Source: a virus. Taken from it: 42,879 nucleotides of DNA. The stretch is taken from the UHGV virus genome UHGV-0301147; one strand, 5' to 3'. The translations under genes and the position numbers were made by a program. Below the pieces are notes generated by a model. The model searched no databases. It worked only from the letters and a program-made list of their open reading frames with translations, and had not been told where the DNA came from. Below are positions 22,103 to 42,812 of the stretch, in pieces (within the stretch, counting starts at the first letter, position 1; the number at the start of each line of letters is the position of its first letter).

Positions 22103-22452
22103 TTCTTAGAAATTTGGCAATATACCAAATTAGCGTTAAATATGGCCTATTTTGTTCGGTTTTGCAAGCATTATACGCAAACGTCGTCTAAATGGTTTTG
22201 ATAATGATGCAAAGTTGCAAGAAGTGCCACTTCATCAAGTGCTCTCACCGCCTCTTTCATTCCTGCCCAGTGCGGGGAGTATGTTTCGCACCAGGTGGAA
22301 CGAGAAACAGACAACATTCCAGCTAGCGCAGATCCGGCCATCTCCTTAAAATCCTCGCGTTTATTTGATGCTGCGACCGCCTGCACGGACAACCACACCA
22401 ACGAAAGCAGGCGCTTAACTACTTTTCTCTGAGTTGACGCGGGGATGTTTCC

Positions 22453-22480
22453 TTTATAGCGACTCCAGACAGCCTAACAA
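22453..22480 (-). promoter_or_regulatory. pR'-like late promoter candidate immediately after the Q-like gene
   Basis: Minus strand TTGTTA - 16 nt - TATAAA overlapping the stop of the 22474-22842 gene. Confidence 0.35.
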
Positions 22481-22842
22481 ATAGCTGTTTGGTGTTTGAA
22501 TGCCAGGTTACCACCGTAGCAATAACGCAACCACGCTTGCTGACTTGCATCCAGCGAGTTCACAGAACGCCGCCAGGATGAATCAGCAAATTCAAAATCA
22601 CTCATCGGCGGCGCGGGGCGACGTCTGCTGAAACTTTCCAGAGCGTAAACTGGCGTAACCAGAGCATCAACGGTCCGGTCCTCCAGCTGCACACGGTGAA
22701 TATGTTTGCGTGGGTATGCGTTTTTGTCTGCCGGTGGGTGCTCACACAATGCTTCCAGTTGCCCCTTAGAACCACCAGACAAATCCCGCAATGCAGCGCG
22801 CAGTTTTATGCGGGTATATTCCAATAAATACTCGTTACTCAT
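22474..22842 (-). CDS. Putative late-gene antiterminator (Q-like); assignment is positional
   Basis: 122-aa ORF between the YbcO-like gene and the promoter/terminator/holin region; lacks the DxD motif of RusA. Confidence 0.4.
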   Translation of the reverse strand: MSNEYLLEYTRIKLRAALRDLSGGSKGQLEALCEHPPADKNAYPRKHIHRVQLEDRTVDALVTPVYALESFSRRRPAPPMSDFEFADSSWRRSVNSLDASQQAWLRYCYGGNLAFKHQTAIC

Positions 22843-27680: not shown

Positions 27681-28346
27681 TTATTTTTTATGATTAACTT
27701 GCTTTGCTAAAGAGCTATAAATCATATCAACCAAAACATATTTTTCGCATTCCCAAGGTTCACTAATAGATGGGTTTACTAAGTCTGGCTTCCCCCCCAT
27801 TAGTGTATGAACATGCGAATAAATACCTATTCTTTCTGCGAGTTGCATTATTTTTATTTGATGTTCTGGTGGGAGCATTTTGTTTTTAAACCATGTTGTA
27901 AATATATGCTTGGTAAGTTCCTTAGTACAAACAAACCATTCACCTTGACGTCTTTCGTTGCTAAATTTTTCATGAAGATAATTTTCTTTTTCTGAACCAC
28001 CAGGTTCCAAAGCGTGTAATATTAATTGACCAAATGCACCTGTTTGCAGGTTAGACAACCTTTTTAGCACATTATTGGAACGCCCTATTTTCACATAAAG
28101 TCCCGAGTAAGGGTTATTTTTATCTGAAGAACCGGCCCAAGTATCAGGCACTTGTAAAATATAATAAATACTACTTACTTTCCCACTCGATACATTATTT
28201 GCCCAAATCTGCCATTCTTCCATCCAGCTTTTTGCATCTTCTCTCGTGTCAAAGGCATGACTTGTATAGTAAAATTCACCAGTATCCAAGAACATATCGA
28301 AAACATATTTGCCATTCTCTATAATTCTTAAGTTGTCGGCTTTCAT
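27681..28346 (-). CDS. T5orf172 (MUG113, GIY-YIG-like) domain protein; putative defence-type nuclease
   Basis: 221-aa ORF containing LYVKIGRSNNVLKRLSNLQTG ... ENYLHEKFSNERRQGEWF, matching the T5orf172 signature (YKIG-T ... R ... L ... E ... LH ... F ... R ... GEWF); AT-rich. Confidence 0.75.
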   Translation of the reverse strand: MKADNLRIIENGKYVFDMFLDTGEFYYTSHAFDTREDAKSWMEEWQIWANNVSSGKVSSIYYILQVPDTWAGSSDKNNPYSGLYVKIGRSNNVLKRLSNLQTGAFGQLILHALEPGGSEKENYLHEKFSNERRQGEWFVCTKELTKHIFTTWFKNKMLPPEHQIKIMQLAERIGIYSHVHTLMGGKPDLVNPSISEPWECEKYVLVDMIYSSLAKQVNHKK

Positions 28347-30472: not shown

Positions 30473-31309
30473 TCAAAATGCTGAATCAGCAACAGATACA
30501 GCCGACTTTTTCCCCATTACCATCAATTTATCCAGTGTCATACTTCGCAGATTGTCGCTGTGGATCACCAGATACCCTGCCCGCTCAGCGATCTCTTTGA
30601 AAGCGTCAAAGGTCATCAGATGTTCGCCTTTGGCAACATGGCGCATCCTTGTCACTTTTCCATTTTTGATAGTGGTGATAAAAGAAAAATCCGGAATGGT
30701 TGGCTGATTTTCATCGAGTAGCAGGCAGTGGATGTATTCAATCGCCTCTAACATTTGCGTCTGTGACAGTTGTTCTATGTGAGAGACGGCGAAGCGTTGA
30801 TGAATCATGGTGTAGGCATCGGGATACATCATGCCTTTCTTACCGACCAGCATATTAACGGCATCACGTAAGGGAGTACGGTCATCGGTAGTTGTACTCC
30901 GCCTCTCTGGGCGCTGGCTAAAATAACAATCTTCAAGCTTTTCGAAAACTTCCCAAGCCTGTTCTGTTTCCAGCATTTTGGCATGGCGAGCTGCGCCGCG
31001 TTCTGTCCAGAGAATGAGGGATCGGGTATGTTTAGCAACTGACTGACTATCTGTCAGTCTGTTTTTGAAGTCGCGTAATTCATTACCTTCCAGCTTAAAA
31101 AAATGCTTTCCTACGACAAATCTGGCGATGTTGCGCTTGAAGTTTTGCTGGATACCATTTACTTCCGTGCCATACAAACTGGCAAGCAATTCAGTAGTGA
31201 TGACGGGAAGTTGGTTATGATGTAGCGGAGAAAGGGATTCCGCAGATATTTGGATTGTCATCGCAGTGGCCTCACTTAGTGTTTTTTTCATCACCACCAG
31301 CGACGCCAA
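30473..31309 (-). CDS. Phage antirepressor-like regulatory protein (Ant/Rha-type N-terminal domain)
   Basis: 278-aa ORF with antirepressor-like N-terminal region; true start probably an internal Met. Confidence 0.55.
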   Translation of the reverse strand: MASLVVMKKTLSEATAMTIQISAESLSPLHHNQLPVITTELLASLYGTEVNGIQQNFKRNIARFVVGKHFFKLEGNELRDFKNRLTDSQSVAKHTRSLILWTERGAARHAKMLETEQAWEVFEKLEDCYFSQRPERRSTTTDDRTPLRDAVNMLVGKKGMMYPDAYTMIHQRFAVSHIEQLSQTQMLEAIEYIHCLLLDENQPTIPDFSFITTIKNGKVTRMRHVAKGEHLMTFDAFKEIAERAGYLVIHSDNLRSMTLDKLMVMGKKSAVSVADSAF

Positions 31310-31533
31310 TCATCTGGTGGTGAACTGTGCAGGGTTGGCGTAACCGGCTAAGTGAACCCGGCGCTTCCGCAGAAGCCCCCACACAGCCCACCATAATGCG
31401 AATGTGGCCGTGCCTAACACATAAAAAAACCGCTAACGCGGCTATGCGTCACTTAGATATCCGGGACGCCAATCCCGGCAACCGATTTTGCGGCTGCGCG
31501 GAAACTATAGCCCCGGGCTTTTTCTAAGTCAAT

Positions 31534-36412: not shown

Positions 36413-36610
36413 CTAAGCTTTTTCATGTTTTGGAACATCGTAAAAAGTCGGGTCATATTTCAGTGCTCCATTAGTGATATGGTCGAGTCGAGCTGCTCGC
36501 TTTTCAGGAACTGTTGCCCCCCAACGAGTAACCGCCACTTGTGATATACCCAGCACCTTGGCTGTGGCTGTCTTTGAACCAAAAAAACTAATAACCGTCT
36601 CTGTTTTCAT
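36413..36610 (-). CDS. Cro-like HTH regulator (YdaS/DicC-like)
   Basis: 65-aa ORF divergent from the repressor gene. Confidence 0.7.
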   Translation of the reverse strand: MKTETVISFFGSKTATAKVLGISQVAVTRWGATVPEKRAARLDHITNGALKYDPTFYDVPKHEKA

Positions 36611-36678
36611 AATTCCTCCGCGTAACTTTTGTTAGCAACACAAATACTAACGAAAGTTATGTCAAGTTAACTTATATT
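36611..36678. promoter_or_regulatory. Divergent promoter/operator region of the immunity switch
   Basis: 68-bp AT-rich intergenic region between the Cro-like and repressor genes, containing AAGTTA-N8-TAACTT and a TTAG...CTAA dyad. Confidence 0.5.
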
Positions 36679-37092
36679 ATGAGGATGAAAAATTTGATGC
36701 TTAGCGACCGTTTATCTCAAAGACGCAAACAGCTTGGTCTAACCCAACAACAGCTTGCTGATATGGTTGGAAGATCGAGTGTGAGCGTTTTTAAATGGGA
36801 AAGCGGACAAAATGAACCAAAGGGCCAGAACTTGTTGGCTTTGGCCAATGCACTCAAGTGTTCTGCCACATGGCTGCTTTTTGGTGACGAAGACCAGGCG
36901 CCAACTCCGGTAGACGAATTACCAACAGAGCTGGATTCACGTCAAAAAAGATTGTTAGAGTTATTTGATTCATTACCCGAGTCAGAAAAAGAAAAGCAAC
37001 TAATTGAATTAGAAGATAAAGTTGAAAACTTTAATCGTTTATTTGAAGAGTTACTGGTTACCAGAAAGAAACTAACCCCCACCAAAAAATAA
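36679..37092 (+). CDS. CI-like prophage repressor, XRE-family HTH only (no S24 autopeptidase domain)
   Basis: 137-aa ORF with HTH LTQQQLADMVGRSSVSVFKWESG; too short for a LexA-like cleavage domain; start may be the Met at 36697. Confidence 0.8.
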   Translation: MRMKNLMLSDRLSQRRKQLGLTQQQLADMVGRSSVSVFKWESGQNEPKGQNLLALANALKCSATWLLFGDEDQAPTPVDELPTELDSRQKRLLELFDSLPESEKEKQLIELEDKVENFNRLFEELLVTRKKLTPTKK

Positions 37093-37954: not shown

Positions 37955-38038
37955 GAGGAAAGACCAACGACACTGACGCTATGGAAGCTGATCAATATTC
38001 GCTGATCGGCTCTGAGTATACATTACCAAGGAGTCGCT

Positions 38039-38359
38039 ATGGAAGCGCGCACCATCCCAGTAACACTCTTTATTCATTATGCAACTTCAACTTTCAGCCA
38101 CGAAAAGCTGCTTGTTGCGACGGTTGATATGTCAAAAAATTTTCCAGACAGGTACATCCTTCTGGAAAGCCGCGAAATTGAAATTACCGTCAACCAGCCC
38201 CAGCCAATCGACATCATCGGTTTACAGGTCGAGCAGCTGCATGAGCAAAAACAGAAAACAGCCGCCGACGCCCAACAGCGTATTGCTGCTATCGATGACG
38301 AAATCCAGCAGTTACTTTGCATCGAATACACGCCAGATACCGATGAAATCCCCTACTAA
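38039..38359 (+). CDS. Hypothetical protein (first gene of the plus-strand early-left operon)
   Basis: 106-aa ORF with SD AAGGAG; no family recognised. Confidence 0.5.
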   Translation: MEARTIPVTLFIHYATSTFSHEKLLVATVDMSKNFPDRYILLESREIEITVNQPQPIDIIGLQVEQLHEQKQKTAADAQQRIAAIDDEIQQLLCIEYTPDTDEIPY

Positions 38360-38389
38360 AGACCACTGACCTGTAATGAGGAAAGACCA

Positions 38390-40606
38390 ATGACCATTTT
38401 TAACGGCTTGTTAGAAGCGAAAAAAGGCGCGCTCAAAAACGGTGCGATCCCGGCGCTGGCCATCGCCATCGACGCCCCTAACAAAAAAGTTGCCGAGAAC
38501 ATCATCATCGGCAAATTGTGGGAAGCCTACCCTGACCACGGCGACAACTATTTCAAACCTAAAATCTGGGAGGATGCCCCAGGCCAACCGCGCCCAGGCG
38601 TCGGTGAGTTTGATGAGACGTTTGCCACAGAACACAGTTTTGATGGCGAAAAATGGGTAGTTAACCCCCCCGCTGATTCAGATAGCGGTTCAGCAGATAT
38701 CGCACAGGTTAACGACCTGATGAAACTGCCTGCTCGTGAACGCTTCGCCGCCGTCCTGCTGTTCAGCCACGACGCCAACGAAGTCGACAGTGAATTGCTT
38801 GCGCAGACGCGTGAATACCTGGAGATGCTCGACAACAGTGATACTAACAGTGAGGATGAGGTTGACGCGTTTAACCGCATCGTCCTCGATGCCATGGTAG
38901 CGTGTAAGCCCATTGAGTACATGCATATTGCTGGATTGAATAATCTGGTACATGCAATTTTGGCAAGTTGCGATACCCAGGAACAAAACCCGACCAGTTG
39001 GACTATCTCCAAATTTATAAAAAAATGGGTAGAGAATCCCGGTAAACGCGATGAAATGCTGCCGGAGGTAAAACCACAAACAGCATCCGCACGTCCTTAC
39101 CAACAGACTCACGCCACACTGGATCGTGAAATTGCCTGCGCCCTGTTACCTGTTGCCCCGGAAAAAATCACCCCCAGCATCCTGAAAGCGGCAGACGAAA
39201 TAATCAGTCAGGACAGGGAAGATTTTAAACGCTGGTCAATGGCCTTGCGCACAACGGATCAGATCCTTGCCTATGACCGCGCATCAGTATTCGGTGTTAT
39301 TCAGAGCGCCCCCGCAAAAGACACGTACCACTTCCCACAATCCCTGCGCAGTCACATCGACAACTGGCTGCAAGCTAACGGGCAGCGTGATGCAAATGCT
39401 GTTGAAGAGAAGCCAAAGGAAGCAGCACCAAAGGATGATGTAAAAGTCACCAACCACGGCGGCGGACGATTCTCAATTGATGGGATGATGTCAGAAACAC
39501 CCTCAAATCAGGGCGAAAAAAGCGAAGCAGCAAATGCTGGAGAACGTAGTTTGCAGCAGTTGCGTGAGCAGTTTGTCACGCCTCGCCATGTGTATGACGT
39601 ACCTGAAAATAACGCCGTATCACAGAGGGAACCTGCAGCTATTACCCCGGCAGAAGAGACTCCTCCACAAGAACAACTTAGCGAGCAGGTAAAGGATCTG
39701 GTGCAGAACGTTGACGCGCTGGTTGAGCGGATCCATACCGAAGAGTACAAGCGGCAGAATGCAATCTCAGCTATCGAAACGGAGTTAAAGGACTCCGACG
39801 ACACGGATAATCTGGCATTGTGGAAGAACGTATTCAAAACCGATGAGCGCTTCACCAGTGCTTTCTCTCAGAATGGCGGCGGCACATCCATCAACGGCAC
39901 TTATATAGCGATGAAAGCGACTCGCGAATTTGGGCCGTTTGGTATTGGCTGGGGTGTAGAGGTGCTGGAGGAGCGCTTTGATAAAGGCGCACCGATAGTT
40001 CGCAAAAAACAGGTTGGTGAAAAAATAGAATGGGATCTGATTCACGACGGTGTTGGCGGGTACCTATGTGAAATGCACCACACCATGAAAGTGAGAGTCT
40101 GGTACATATTGAATGGGGTGCGCGGCGAGTCTGCGGCTTACGGTTGCACTCCGTACATCTACGATACTAGACATGGACCAACAAGCGACGGCGAAGCGCC
40201 GAAGAAATCCTGGACGGATGCTGTTAAGAAAGCGCTATCCCCTCTCGGATTCAGCGCCGATATTTTCATGGGCCTGTACGACAATCCGGAATACCGCCAG
40301 AGGAATAAAGCTGAGTTTGATATCAAGAATGCCAGCGAGAATGCGGAAGATGCTACCCGTCTTCGTAAGGAACTGGATGAGAAGCTGATCAACGTTGCCA
40401 ATACGCTGGCCGCCGCGGTAACCACCAACGAAGTAAACAAGGTATTTGGCCTCATCGCCCGCGAAGTGGATGTACACCGAAAAGCAGCAGAAGCCAAAGG
40501 CGATAAAGAATATTCATCGTATCTGGGATCGCGCCTGCGCCGTATCACCGACATCAAAACTGAACGCCTCGCCACCCTCACCGCTGCACAGGAGCAAACC
40601 GCATGA
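38390..40606 (+). CDS. Rad52-like single-strand annealing protein with a ~450-aa N-terminal extension of unknown function
   Basis: 738-aa ORF; C-terminal third carries Rad52/Sak-type motifs (GPFGIGWG ... KKSWTDAVKKALSPLGFSADIFMGLYD). Confidence 0.65.
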   Translation: MTIFNGLLEAKKGALKNGAIPALAIAIDAPNKKVAENIIIGKLWEAYPDHGDNYFKPKIWEDAPGQPRPGVGEFDETFATEHSFDGEKWVVNPPADSDSGSADIAQVNDLMKLPARERFAAVLLFSHDANEVDSELLAQTREYLEMLDNSDTNSEDEVDAFNRIVLDAMVACKPIEYMHIAGLNNLVHAILASCDTQEQNPTSWTISKFIKKWVENPGKRDEMLPEVKPQTASARPYQQTHATLDREIACALLPVAPEKITPSILKAADEIISQDREDFKRWSMALRTTDQILAYDRASVFGVIQSAPAKDTYHFPQSLRSHIDNWLQANGQRDANAVEEKPKEAAPKDDVKVTNHGGGRFSIDGMMSETPSNQGEKSEAANAGERSLQQLREQFVTPRHVYDVPENNAVSQREPAAITPAEETPPQEQLSEQVKDLVQNVDALVERIHTEEYKRQNAISAIETELKDSDDTDNLALWKNVFKTDERFTSAFSQNGGGTSINGTYIAMKATREFGPFGIGWGVEVLEERFDKGAPIVRKKQVGEKIEWDLIHDGVGGYLCEMHHTMKVRVWYILNGVRGESAAYGCTPYIYDTRHGPTSDGEAPKKSWTDAVKKALSPLGFSADIFMGLYDNPEYRQRNKAEFDIKNASENAEDATRLRKELDEKLINVANTLAAAVTTNEVNKVFGLIAREVDVHRKAAEAKGDKEYSSYLGSRLRRITDIKTERLATLTAAQEQTA

Positions 40607-41172
40607 GCACCGCTATCGCTATTGCAAAAGAATATGCCAGCCTGATTGACCTGCTGGAAACCTCCGACGAACTGACGCCAGAGATGATCGCCGACACGCT
40701 TGAAGGTATGGAAGGAGAACTGGGAGACAAACTGGACGCCATGATGGTCATCTGCCGCAATTTACAGGGCAATGCCAGTACCTGCGCTGAAGAAATGTCT
40801 CGCCTGGCTACCCGTAAGACGTCCTTTGAAGGCAAGGAAAAAGCAATTCGGAAGCATATGCTCGCCTGCCTGCAAGCTGCTGGCCTGGATAAATTGAAAA
40901 CTGCTAAAAACACATTTACTGATGCACAGGGGGCTATCCGGGTAATTATCGATAGCAAAGATAAGATCCCGGACGAGTATGAAGGCGTGTCACTTGTTGA
41001 AGTAGAAACGGTTATTACACCAAACAAGCGAGCCATTAAAGAAGTGATTGAATCTGCGGAGGCGGTTGCCGCAGAAATAATGGCGCGTGGAGAAACACCA
41101 CCTGCCGAATTACTTAACCCGGTACCAGGCGCACATCTGGAACGCGGCGAACGTTCGCTGAGGGTACGCTAA
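40603..41172 (+). CDS. Gp157-family protein (recombination-associated)
   Basis: 189-aa ORF overlapping the upstream stop; N-terminus EYASLIDLLETSDELTPEMIADTLEGMEGE and IPDEYEG match recalled Sipho_Gp157 features. Confidence 0.65.
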   Translation: MSTAIAIAKEYASLIDLLETSDELTPEMIADTLEGMEGELGDKLDAMMVICRNLQGNASTCAEEMSRLATRKTSFEGKEKAIRKHMLACLQAAGLDKLKTAKNTFTDAQGAIRVIIDSKDKIPDEYEGVSLVEVETVITPNKRAIKEVIESAEAVAAEIMARGETPPAELLNPVPGAHLERGERSLRVR

Positions 41173-41354
41173 TGCTTAAACTCACATTAAAGCGTGGTGA
41201 CGCGGTTCACCTGGTACTTGCCGATGGTACCAATGGCATTATTGAAGCACGGAGCCGCTGCGAACTTGGGCTACACCTGCCAGAAAACATTAAGGTCACG
41301 CGGGAGAAATCGGCATTCCCCCCACCAGAACTGATTACGCCTAATCAGAAATAA
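41172..41354 (+). CDS. Hypothetical protein
   Basis: 60-aa ORF whose ATG overlaps the upstream stop (TAATG). Confidence 0.4.
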   Translation: MLKLTLKRGDAVHLVLADGTNGIIEARSRCELGLHLPENIKVTREKSAFPPPELITPNQK

Positions 41355-41403
41355 AAACTCACCATCGCTAGCATTACGATTCACCAGTAACCGGAGGATC
41401 ACA

Positions 41404-41628
41404 ATGCTGCGATGGCAACCGGGAGCAACTCTGCTCTCCGCATTTGATATCAAAATTGGCCGACTCTCGGCCAGCGTCAGGAAACAGACTTTGACCGAGT
41501 CTGATATTGCCCGTGCCTGCAAGGCGGCAGATGACGCAATAAGCTACATAATGAGGAAAGACCATGAGAAGCGATCACGACATAATCACCAGAGAAGAAA
41601 TGGTCGAGCTGACGGGAAGCCCACTTAA
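41404..41628 (+). CDS. Hypothetical protein
   Basis: 74-aa ORF with SD GGAGGA; overlaps the next gene out of frame. Confidence 0.35.
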   Translation: MLRWQPGATLLSAFDIKIGRLSASVRKQTLTESDIARACKAADDAISYIMRKDHEKRSRHNHQRRNGRADGKPT

Positions 41629-41827
41629 ATCAAAGCAATGTGAGGCTCTTCGCCGGGCTGGAATTTTCTTCATGGAAAGGGCTGACGGGCACCCAAAAAC
41701 AACCTGGGGCCATTTCATGAACCCAATAAAATTTCGCAATTTACAGGAGGTGACGACGCGAAAAGATGATGAACCTGATTTTGGAGCAATATTTAATGGC
41801 CGGAAAGAGAAAGAACCCAGCAGATAA
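41564..41827 (+). CDS. Excisionase-like protein (DUF4224 family)
   Basis: 87-aa ORF immediately upstream of and overlapping the integrase gene; MVELTGSPLKSKQCEALRRAGIFFMERADGHPKTTW resembles DUF4224. Confidence 0.6.
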   Translation: MRSDHDIITREEMVELTGSPLKSKQCEALRRAGIFFMERADGHPKTTWGHFMNPIKFRNLQEVTTRKDDEPDFGAIFNGRKEKEPSR

Positions 41828-42812
41828 CTGGATGCCGCCTCGTGTTTACCAGGGCAAAGCGGCCTACGAATTCAGGAATAAAGATAACAAAGCGATACGC
41901 CTGTGCGCATTGGATGCGCCACGATCAGCCGTATGGCTGGCATATGAAAAAGCGGTCGGTGACGAAAAAGAAAGAAATACTTTTCAGGCGCTCGCGGAAC
42001 AATTCATGACCTCCCCTGATTTTATGGATTTGGCAGTCGAAACCAGGAAAGACTACACAAAATATTCCGGAAAAGTTCTGCCTGTCTTCGGGAAGATCGA
42101 CCCGGATAAAATCAAACCTGAACATATTCGGCGCTATATGGATCAACGCGGTTTATCAAGCCGAACTCAGGCAAACAGGGAAAAAAGCTTTATGTCCAGG
42201 GTATTCCGTTGGGGTTATGAACGAGGTTATGTCCAGAGGAATCCTTGTCAGGGAGTTAAGCAGTTTAAAGAGACAGCACGCGAACGTTATATTACGGATG
42301 AAGAATATCAGGCCGTTTATGAAGTATCTCCTGATGTTGTTCGCGTGGCAATGGAGATTGCCTACTTATGCGTGGCCAGACAGAGTGATGTACTTTCATT
42401 GCAGAAAGACCAGCTGTTCGATTCCGGGATCTACATTCGTCAGGGAAAAACCGGCGTTAAGCAAATCAAAGCCTGGTCGCCTCGTCTGCAGAAAGCGATA
42501 GCTCTGGCTCGTTCTCTACCATTAAAACCGGGAATCAGTAGCCTGTTTGTGATTCATCAAACTACCGGAGGCAAGTACACCCGTGATGGTTTTAACTCTC
42601 GTTGGCGTGATGTCAAAGCGGCAGCACAGGAAAAATATCCTCATCTGCAAATAGACTTCACATTTCATGATCTGAAAGCAAAAGGTATCTCTGATCTGGA
42701 AGGCAGCCTGGAAGAGAAGCAAGCAATTTCCGGGCATAAGAACCCACGACAGACAGCAGCATATGACCGAAAAGTTAAAGTAGTGCCCGTAGTTGGTGGC
42801 CAGAGAAAATGA
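41766..42812 (+). CDS. int: Tyrosine integrase (lambda Int family)
   Basis: 348-aa ORF at the prophage end; QGKTGVKQIKAWSP and C-terminal HDLKA ... Y resemble lambda Int; true start probably an internal Met. Confidence 0.9.
   Translation: MMNLILEQYLMAGKRKNPADNWMPPRVYQGKAAYEFRNKDNKAIRLCALDAPRSAVWLAYEKAVGDEKERNTFQALAEQFMTSPDFMDLAVETRKDYTKYSGKVLPVFGKIDPDKIKPEHIRRYMDQRGLSSRTQANREKSFMSRVFRWGYERGYVQRNPCQGVKQFKETARERYITDEEYQAVYEVSPDVVRVAMEIAYLCVARQSDVLSLQKDQLFDSGIYIRQGKTGVKQIKAWSPRLQKAIALARSLPLKPGISSLFVIHQTTGGKYTRDGFNSRWRDVKAAAQEKYPHLQIDFTFHDLKAKGISDLEGSLEEKQAISGHKNPRQTAAYDRKVKVVPVVGGQRK

Follow-up and report, generated by a model that had tools for sequence, protein, structure and literature searches.

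Organization of the locus

UHGV virus genome UHGV-0301147, whose full 42,879 nucleotides are referred to here as the window, contains an open reading frame (ORF) for a 738-residue protein in which an N-terminal module of the RecE type precedes a predicted Rad52-type annealing domain; a gene of the Gp157 family follows directly. An initial annotation, made from the sequence without database searches, had described this pair as a Rad52-like annealing protein fused to a large unassigned N-terminal region, with a Gp157-like partner and no visible exonuclease. Both genes belong to the early-left operon of a prophage, which runs on the plus strand after a repressor/Cro switch at 36413-37092 in the order 106-residue ORF, 738-residue ORF, Gp157 gene, 60-residue ORF, xis and int. 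The 738-residue ORF has an ATG start with a GAGGA Shine-Dalgarno sequence upstream; its stop and the start of the Gp157 gene share the letters ATGA, and the Gp157 start has an AGGAG of its own. The two genes and the parts of the fusion protein are as follows, with the confidence of AlphaFold2 (AF2) models given as predicted local distance difference test (pLDDT) scores.

38390..40606, plus strand: gene for the 738-residue fusion protein (RecE-type N-terminal module, linker, putative Rad52-type annealase core, helical tail)
38390..38674, plus strand: domain D1, small alpha/beta domain, residues 1-95
38702..39073, plus strand: domain D2, helical, residues 105-228 (pLDDT 80-97; aligns with the N-terminus of the phage Tritos protein discussed below)
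39095..39394, plus strand: domain D3, helical, residues 236-335 (the stretch most conserved with RecE; pLDDT ~95)
39407..39679, plus strand: predicted disordered linker, residues 340-430 (pLDDT <50)
39683..39793, plus strand: long helix, residues 432-468, present only in long forms (AF2 model)
39809..40285, plus strand: predicted Rad52-type single-strand annealing core, residues 474-632 (AF2 model, Foldseek, K613/K614)
40286..40603, plus strand: C-terminal tail of three long helices, residues 633-738 (AF2 model)
40603..41172, plus strand: Gp157-family gene, 189 residues, Pfam PF05565, translationally coupled partner

The C-terminal core has a predicted Rad52 fold

The model of the C-terminal part, built from a 97-sequence alignment, had a mean pLDDT of 95.2. 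A Foldseek search of the PDB with this model returned human RAD52's N-terminal domain as each of its eight best matches (structures 1h2i, 1kn0, 5jrb, 8bjm and 8rjw; E 1.1e-6 to 4.4e-6, probability 1.0, ~170 aligned columns), the next match having an E value of 0.08; there was no Red-beta or RecT structure among the 50 matches listed. As modelled, residues 474-632 have the Rad52 fold, that is, the RAD52 N-terminal domain's core fold, beta-beta-beta-alpha, and the placing of Rad52-like motifs in the C-terminal third of the protein by the initial annotation was thus borne out. A phmmer search of the PDB with a stand-alone homologue (P0346) likewise found RAD52 only, at E 0.05 over RAD52 residues 47-172. 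The alignment pairs the family segment 'APKKSLTDAVKKAL' with RAD52 'ARKEAVTDGLKRAL' and sets the 'KK' of 'KKAL' against RAD52 K152/R153, which are residues of the inner groove that binds single-stranded DNA (ssDNA). The equivalents in the fusion protein are K613 and K614; among 33 long forms (relatives that also carry the N-terminal part), K614 is invariant and K613 is conserved in at least 90%.

With residues 461-738 as query, an exhaustive HMMER search gave 2655 cluster representatives, most of them stand-alone proteins of 240-290 residues and ~30 of them long fusions. The Pfam family Rad52_Rad22 was matched by 23 of the 97 aligned homologues at E 0.01 or better (best, 3.1e-6); one homologue, P0160, scored 18.2 bits against a cut-off of 20.3. 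Precomputed assignments to this family (PF04098; PF04098.22) are present on several stand-alone relatives close to a protein of Pseudomonas phage MPK9, and two stand-alone relatives are named 'Rad52/Rad22 family DNA repair protein'.

The core is preceded by the helix of residues 432-468, for which the long-form consensus is 'DEFQxRA...E..I', and followed by the three-helix tail (model positions 173-214, 219-242 and 246-277), which is kept in long forms. The tail had no significant Foldseek match in the PDB. By analogy with the C-terminal domain of Red-beta (PMC11611040), it is a candidate region for binding a partner, either Gp157 or the host single-stranded DNA-binding protein (SSB).

Pairing with Gp157

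The 189-residue protein matches Pfam Sipho_Gp157 (PF05565) with an E value of 3.5e-28 and 99.1 bits (cut-off 28.6), over profile positions 4-149 of 162, so the family assignment made initially for this gene holds, as does its immediate adjacency. The pairing is close to invariant. Of 80 viral contigs, 78 have a Gp157 gene next to the Rad52-like one, the two exceptions ending at a contig edge; it lies directly downstream in all 47 long and in 23 of 26 short genomic loci. The stand-alone Rad52-like gene of Pseudomonas phage MPK9 is also paired with Gp157. Genes of this family have further neighbours elsewhere: RecT in phages HK639 and Kapi1, Erf in staphylococcal phages, and additional Rad52-like genes (PMC8093625).

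Many phage annotations, and the label of the PHROG to which Gp157 belongs (PHROG 253), call the protein 'Mu Gam-like end protection'. The Gp157 protein studied here had no match to Pfam Phage_Mu_Gam (PF07352), and Mu Gam itself falls in PHROGs 491 and 2205, not in PHROG 253. Gp38 of HK639 matches both families, Sipho_Gp157 at 1e-41 and Phage_Mu_Gam weakly, at 0.0038, but over nearly its full length. A MuGam-type anti-RecBCD protein has been reported in HK639, which we take to be gp38, and Gp157-family proteins of lambdoid phages have been treated as belonging to this 'MuGam' anti-RecBCD type (PMC12315714). By this analogy Gp157 is a candidate DNA-end-binding or anti-RecBCD protein of the MuGam type.

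The N-terminal module is shared with RecE

The first ~450 residues, left unassigned by the initial annotation, which named a match to a common known domain as something that would refute it, turned out to belong to a RecE-type family, PF27430, which is common, recently defined and has no known function (PMC11611040). BLASTP aligned residues 18-331 with the N-terminus of the 823-residue phage Tritos 'exonuclease VIII', at 25% identity and E 1e-18, and residues 243-308 with residues 263-332 of K-12 RecE. The RecE PHROG, phrog_607, matched residues 231-336 (E 1.3e-25), as did positions 260-370 of NCBIfam NF007259 (exodeoxyribonuclease VIII), which correspond to D3 (E 8.7e-13); only these residues match, and the NF007259 score is 47.3 bits against an equivalog cut-off of 1269. 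PHROG 2489 ('exonuclease', 728 positions) matches the whole 738-residue protein; the Tritos protein matches its positions 2-342 (E 1.9e-38), and RecE matches it at 2.7e-5. Precomputed PF27430 assignments are found on the family studied here and on Tritos-type proteins, whereas the 120 stand-alone Rad52-like proteins listed have none. Our scans used a local Pfam copy that predates PF27430; neither that copy nor NCBIfam had a family covering the full length of the protein, a search of the PDB with the full 738-residue sequence gave nothing meaningful, and a literature search on PF27430 found nothing. Taken together, the alignments show homology between residues 18-331 and the module with which RecE-type proteins begin (PF27430), to which the N-terminal parts of PHROGs 2489, 2082 and 607 correspond.

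The proteins that share this module differ in what follows it. K-12 RecE, whose Pfam families are PF06630 and PF12684, has an Exonuc_VIII N-terminus and a C-terminal DUF3799 nuclease of the PD-(D/E)XK type (E 4e-28), and the Tritos protein, of a type that is very common in E. coli, ends in an Rv2179c-like DEDD 3'-5' exonuclease. Two long relatives of the fusion protein (P0121 and P0123) have an Exonuc_VIII N-terminus joined to the Rad52-like core. On the basis of these comparisons and of the PF27430 assignments, one N-terminal module is combined with three unrelated heads, PD-(D/E)XK, DEDD and Rad52-type, and the gene with each of the three sits at the same place, upstream of xis and int.

Structure prediction for residues 1-470, which the initial annotation had proposed, gave a model (31 sequences, mean pLDDT 79, predicted template modelling score 0.36) with three small confident domains. 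It had no informative fold match in the PDB. There is no invariant polar residue in it; the invariant and near-invariant residues are alanines only.

The linker that follows the module carries a motif of its own, GGGRFSIDG, at residues 357-365 (39458-39484), inside the stretch predicted to be disordered. The corresponding long-form column, 'NLGxGxFSxDGL', is conserved, the version in P0121 is GNGMFSVDN, and neither K-12 RecE nor Tritos has the motif, which may serve for docking. A regular-expression search found no motifs resembling those of clamp binding or the SSB tail. K-12 RecE (L005) and Tritos (L007) share a nearly identical linker segment with 'GISDPNDPKWVKGIQTRD' and a zinc-ribbon-like CxxC...CxxC stretch, which stands before their differing nuclease domains. 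One piece of that segment, 'ISDPNDPKWV', also occurs in some Rad52-type long forms, and all three kinds of protein look like mosaics of short modules.

Integrity and distribution of the fusion gene

Of 5426 complete E. coli genomes, 458 had a match to the locus at 90-100% identity, and 450 one at 95% or more; 449 of the 458 cover at least 80% of the locus. Among 80 viral contigs whose C-terminal domains are 48-99% identical to the one studied here, the ORF reaches 650 residues or more in 76 and is shorter in four; in one contig (L016) the ORF begins 61 bases from the contig start. A scan of species-representative genomes, one per species, found 47 long forms of 600-794 residues, with identity as low as 31%, in Escherichia, Raoultella, Serratia, Yersinia, Pectobacterium, Providencia, Proteus, Xenorhabdus, Pantoea, Rahnella and other genera; the Photorhabdus forms have 584-586 residues. 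A megablast search of phage genomes found no near relative. Compared with two 97%-identical variants, the ratio of nonsynonymous to synonymous substitution rates (dN/dS) was ~0.2 for residues 1-340 and 0.08 for residues 471-738, which indicates purifying selection on both halves of the protein.

Because the ORF is intact in so many genomes, contigs and species, and because both halves have low dN/dS, the sequence data identify the fusion as a real single gene, and the frameshift or sequencing error that the initial annotation had asked to have checked is excluded, as is a recent accidental joining of two genes. Such an artefact could be suspected from the stand-alone genes of 240-290 residues that form the majority of the family, and from the split or shortened versions in a few enterobacterial genomes; yet the intact copies counted above, the selection on both halves, and N-terminal domains that are modelled confidently from co-variation leave it with practically no probability. 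In the split or shortened versions (L181, L189, L202, L208 and L228) the Rad52-like part lies in an ORF of 194-463 residues, and tblastn matches reach farther upstream than that ORF; these loci may have arisen from the long form by splitting or decay.

One full-length long form (L187; 37% identity) lies outside the Enterobacterales, from which all the others come: it is on a 12 kb contig, NZ_SZPQ01000070.1, of the alphaproteobacterial assembly of Martelella alba. Contamination or horizontal transfer could explain it.

Neighbouring genes

The pair is flanked by two small genes and followed by the excision and integration genes:

38039..38359, plus strand: ORF of 106 residues, PHROG 2479, conserved upstream neighbour of the module
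41172..41354, plus strand: ORF of 60 residues, PHROG 2482, conserved downstream neighbour
41564..42812, plus strand: excisionase (DUF4224) and tyrosine integrase, end of the prophage early-left operon

The 106-residue ORF has no match in Pfam or NCBIfam. Its homologue lies upstream in 68 of the 80 viral contigs and in 36 of the 47 long-form genomic loci, and the 60-residue ORF is found in 66 of the 80 contigs; the genes of PHROGs 2479 and 2482, which flank the annealase-Gp157 pair, may be part of the recombination module.

Scans with Pfam, PHROG and NCBIfam and the annotation revealed no nuclease domain in any ORF from 38039 to 42812. In the entire window just one gene resembles a nuclease gene, a GIY-YIG ORF (27681-28346) ~10 kb away on the other strand. 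In this the locus differs from the two-gene modules lambda Red and RecET, which have an adjacent phage exonuclease gene. The initial annotation was therefore right that no exonuclease partner is visible, but overstated the rarity of this: a nuclease gene is lacking from 84 of 246 lambdoid recombination modules (PMC12315714).

Between the repressor gene and the 106-residue ORF, the ~0.9 kb at 37100-38039 matches nothing in Rfam and lacks a convincing ORF; several hairpins there resemble terminators, most of them on the minus strand. The equivalent stretch of phage Tritos carries the DicF small RNA. Elsewhere in the window, Rfam matches to isrK (80 bits) and C4 antisense RNA (74 bits), with a c4 a1/b1 target element, are found at 31313-31510 on the minus strand. 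An antirepressor-like ORF with an ORF6N domain (30473-31309, minus strand) begins just downstream of them, and the two together look like a P1/P7-type C4-ant immunity cassette within a lambdoid prophage. The window's one Chi site (31294-31301) is inside the ORF6N-domain ORF; as 1.09 sites are expected, the count permits no inference on RecBCD dependence.

Comparison with known recombination modules

The core has the same fold as Rad52/Rad22 annealases, such as Sak of lactococcal phage ul36 (PF04098) and human RAD52, and its 'KKS-TDA-KKAL' helix aligns with RAD52 residues 142-155, which include K152/R153. Unlike these annealases, the protein falls below the Pfam threshold, has long beta-hairpin insertions, and carries ~470 additional N-terminal residues and a 105-residue helical tail. 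To our knowledge, the characterized Sak and Rad52-like phage proteins are single-domain proteins. A literature search found no paper on a Rad52-type domain joined to a RecE-type N-terminus.

The fusion gene resembles recE of the Rac prophage in its homologous N-terminal module and in its place in the early-left operon, upstream of xis and int, but differs in having neither a PD-(D/E)XK (DUF3799) domain nor a RecT partner; RecE is a nuclease, and the protein described here is a predicted annealase. The relation to Tritos-type 'exonucleases' is similar: the N-terminal 330 residues are homologous (PF27430) and the genomic position is the same, but the Tritos head is an Rv2179c-like DEDD exonuclease and no Gp157 gene follows it. 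Among lambdoid recombination modules, Tritos-type proteins fit the class with a DnaQ-like 3'-5' nuclease (PMC12315714). Salmonella relatives of 746-757 residues were considered as classical Gifsy recE, an identification that was dropped since Gifsy recE and recT are separate (PMC3121763).

The closest parallel to the whole locus is in Pectobacterium phage ZF40, where gp07 (721 residues, annotated 'exonuclease') is 34.6% identical to the fusion protein over 98% of its length. The gene order is as here: gp08 (a small ORF), gp07 (the fusion), gp06 (Gp157), gp05, xis and int. Gp08 and gp05 correspond by position to the 106- and 60-residue ORFs. A 2025 survey of lambdoid recombination modules lists ZF40 with an anti-RecBCD gene only, without annealase or nuclease, and describes 'RecE-2' proteins that have no nuclease domain and whose role is not known (PMC12315714). 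These 'RecE-2' proteins are probably the family of Rad52-RecE-type fusions. The Rad52-type domain described here is not reported there (PMC12315714).

Rad52-like phage annealases and recombination modules that lack a nuclease are both well known (PMC2896510, PMC12315714). P22 erf/abc, RecT with Gp157 in HK639, and Erf with Gp157 in phages of Firmicutes all combine an annealase with an end-protection or anti-RecBCD gene, as here, and have no exonuclease (PMC12315714; PMC8093625). The present locus differs from them in the family of its annealase and in that the annealase carries a RecE-type N-terminal module.

Functional interpretation

The predicted Rad52 fold, the Rad52_Rad22 matches within the family, and the alignment and near-invariance of K613/K614 argue that the protein is a Rad52-type annealase; the pairing with Gp157, the presence of Gp157 beside RecT and Erf annealases, and the precedent of nuclease-less lambdoid modules argue for a recombination module. 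We therefore consider it probable that a Rad52/Sak-type annealase carried on a RecE-type N-terminal module constitutes, with Gp157, a phage recombination module that lacks a nuclease.

The early-left operon would be expressed after induction to give the annealase and Gp157. The annealase core would form rings, bind ssDNA in its basic groove and anneal complementary strands without ATP. Because no phage exonuclease is encoded, the ssDNA would be supplied by host nucleases or by replication forks. Gp157 would bind and protect DNA ends or block RecBCD, as Mu Gam does, and the three-helix tail would have Gp157 or host SSB as its binding partner. The N-terminal module, having no invariant polar residue, would be non-catalytic and is a probable adaptor for targeting or tethering the DNA enzyme joined to it, whichever that is. 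Full-length RecE improves linear-linear recombination, which offers an analogy for such a role.

Several points weigh against this interpretation. The protein itself has no Pfam Rad52_Rad22 match at E 0.1 or better, a sequence search of the PDB with the profile of the 97-sequence family missed RAD52 and gave nothing meaningful, and template modelling scores against RAD52, at 0.5-0.6 on the target, are moderate. An hhalign comparison of Gp157 with the Mu Gam family returned a probability of 0.1%, from shallow alignments (effective number of sequences, Neff, ~2), and the lone sequence link between the two families, that of HK639 gp38, is sub-threshold. The adaptor role of the N-terminal module is a conjecture about a region with no informative fold match. 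Activity throughout the family is predicted from fold and sequence, the observations being those of fold, K613/K614 conservation, domain architecture and gene pairing.

Other functions can be considered for the protein. Database entries make it an exonuclease (PHROGs 2489 and 7838, the RefSeq labels 'exonuclease family protein' and 'phage-associated endonuclease', and the annotation of ZF40 gp07), and the homology of its N-terminus to RecE and the DEDD exonuclease of Tritos might seem to agree. The likeness to true exonucleases is, however, limited to the non-catalytic N-terminal module, in which only alanines are invariant or nearly so; the catalytic domains of RecE and Tritos are both absent and the C-terminal part has a Rad52 fold instead, so that exonuclease function is very improbable and the labels of PHROG 2489 and RefSeq are probably wrong. 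Less easily dismissed, though still unlikely, is that the Rad52-like domain has been recruited for another job, such as replication initiation or restart, ssDNA protection or counter-defence, with the RecE-type module as the main effector and Gp157 as a regulator. In its conservation the N-terminal module equals an independent functional unit, and it is joined to three unrelated DNA enzymes; its function is not known for RecE either (PMC11611040), and Sak-type annealases are reported to be needed for phage replication in Staphylococcus (PMC5499656). On the other hand, the gene occupies the position of lambdoid recombination modules, between immunity and xis/int, it is paired with a type of gene that accompanies RecT, Erf and Rad52 annealases, and the residues of the ssDNA groove are conserved.

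Whatever the family does, this particular copy might be a silent relic in a defective prophage, without present function. The Q antiterminator gene (22171-22842, minus strand) has an in-frame stop at codon 122, and one E. coli strain, with 100% identity over window positions 38000-41400, has Q annotated as a pseudogene. Given this stop, the prophage may fail to activate its late genes, and this copy of the annealase may never be active in a productive lytic cycle, which also counts against the recombination module as we describe it. But early-left genes are expressed without Q, and the gene is intact, 97-100% identical to copies in many strains and has a dN/dS of 0.08-0.2, so we regard a relic as rather improbable.

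A bolder extension of the recombination-module reading is possible, if doubtful. Here the RecE-type module would be a portable adaptor, swapped among a 5'-3' exonuclease, a 3'-5' exonuclease and a Rad52-type annealase and giving all three one common function, for example DNA-end tethering, synapsis or recruitment to a host factor. With Gp157, the annealase would make up a self-sufficient exonuclease-free system and would be the 'missing' annealase of many enterobacterial prophages at present counted as having none, with ZF40, 'RecE-2' and part of the Rec-minus class among them.

Implications

A family present in ~8% of complete E. coli genomes and across the Enterobacterales, labelled exonuclease or hypothetical, bears a Rad52-type domain. 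Many enterobacterial prophages thus seem to carry an annealase that has gone unnoticed, and surveys of prophage recombination functions may undercount annealases. The family also gives a handle on a small and old puzzle, the role of the N-terminal 560-590 residues of RecE: because the same module serves three unrelated DNA enzymes, a shared function is open to domain-swap and deletion tests. As a predicted natural Rad52-type annealase of E. coli, the protein is, together with Gp157, a candidate recombineering tool, and the near-invariant pairing of the two suggests a testable role for the uncharacterised Gp157 family.

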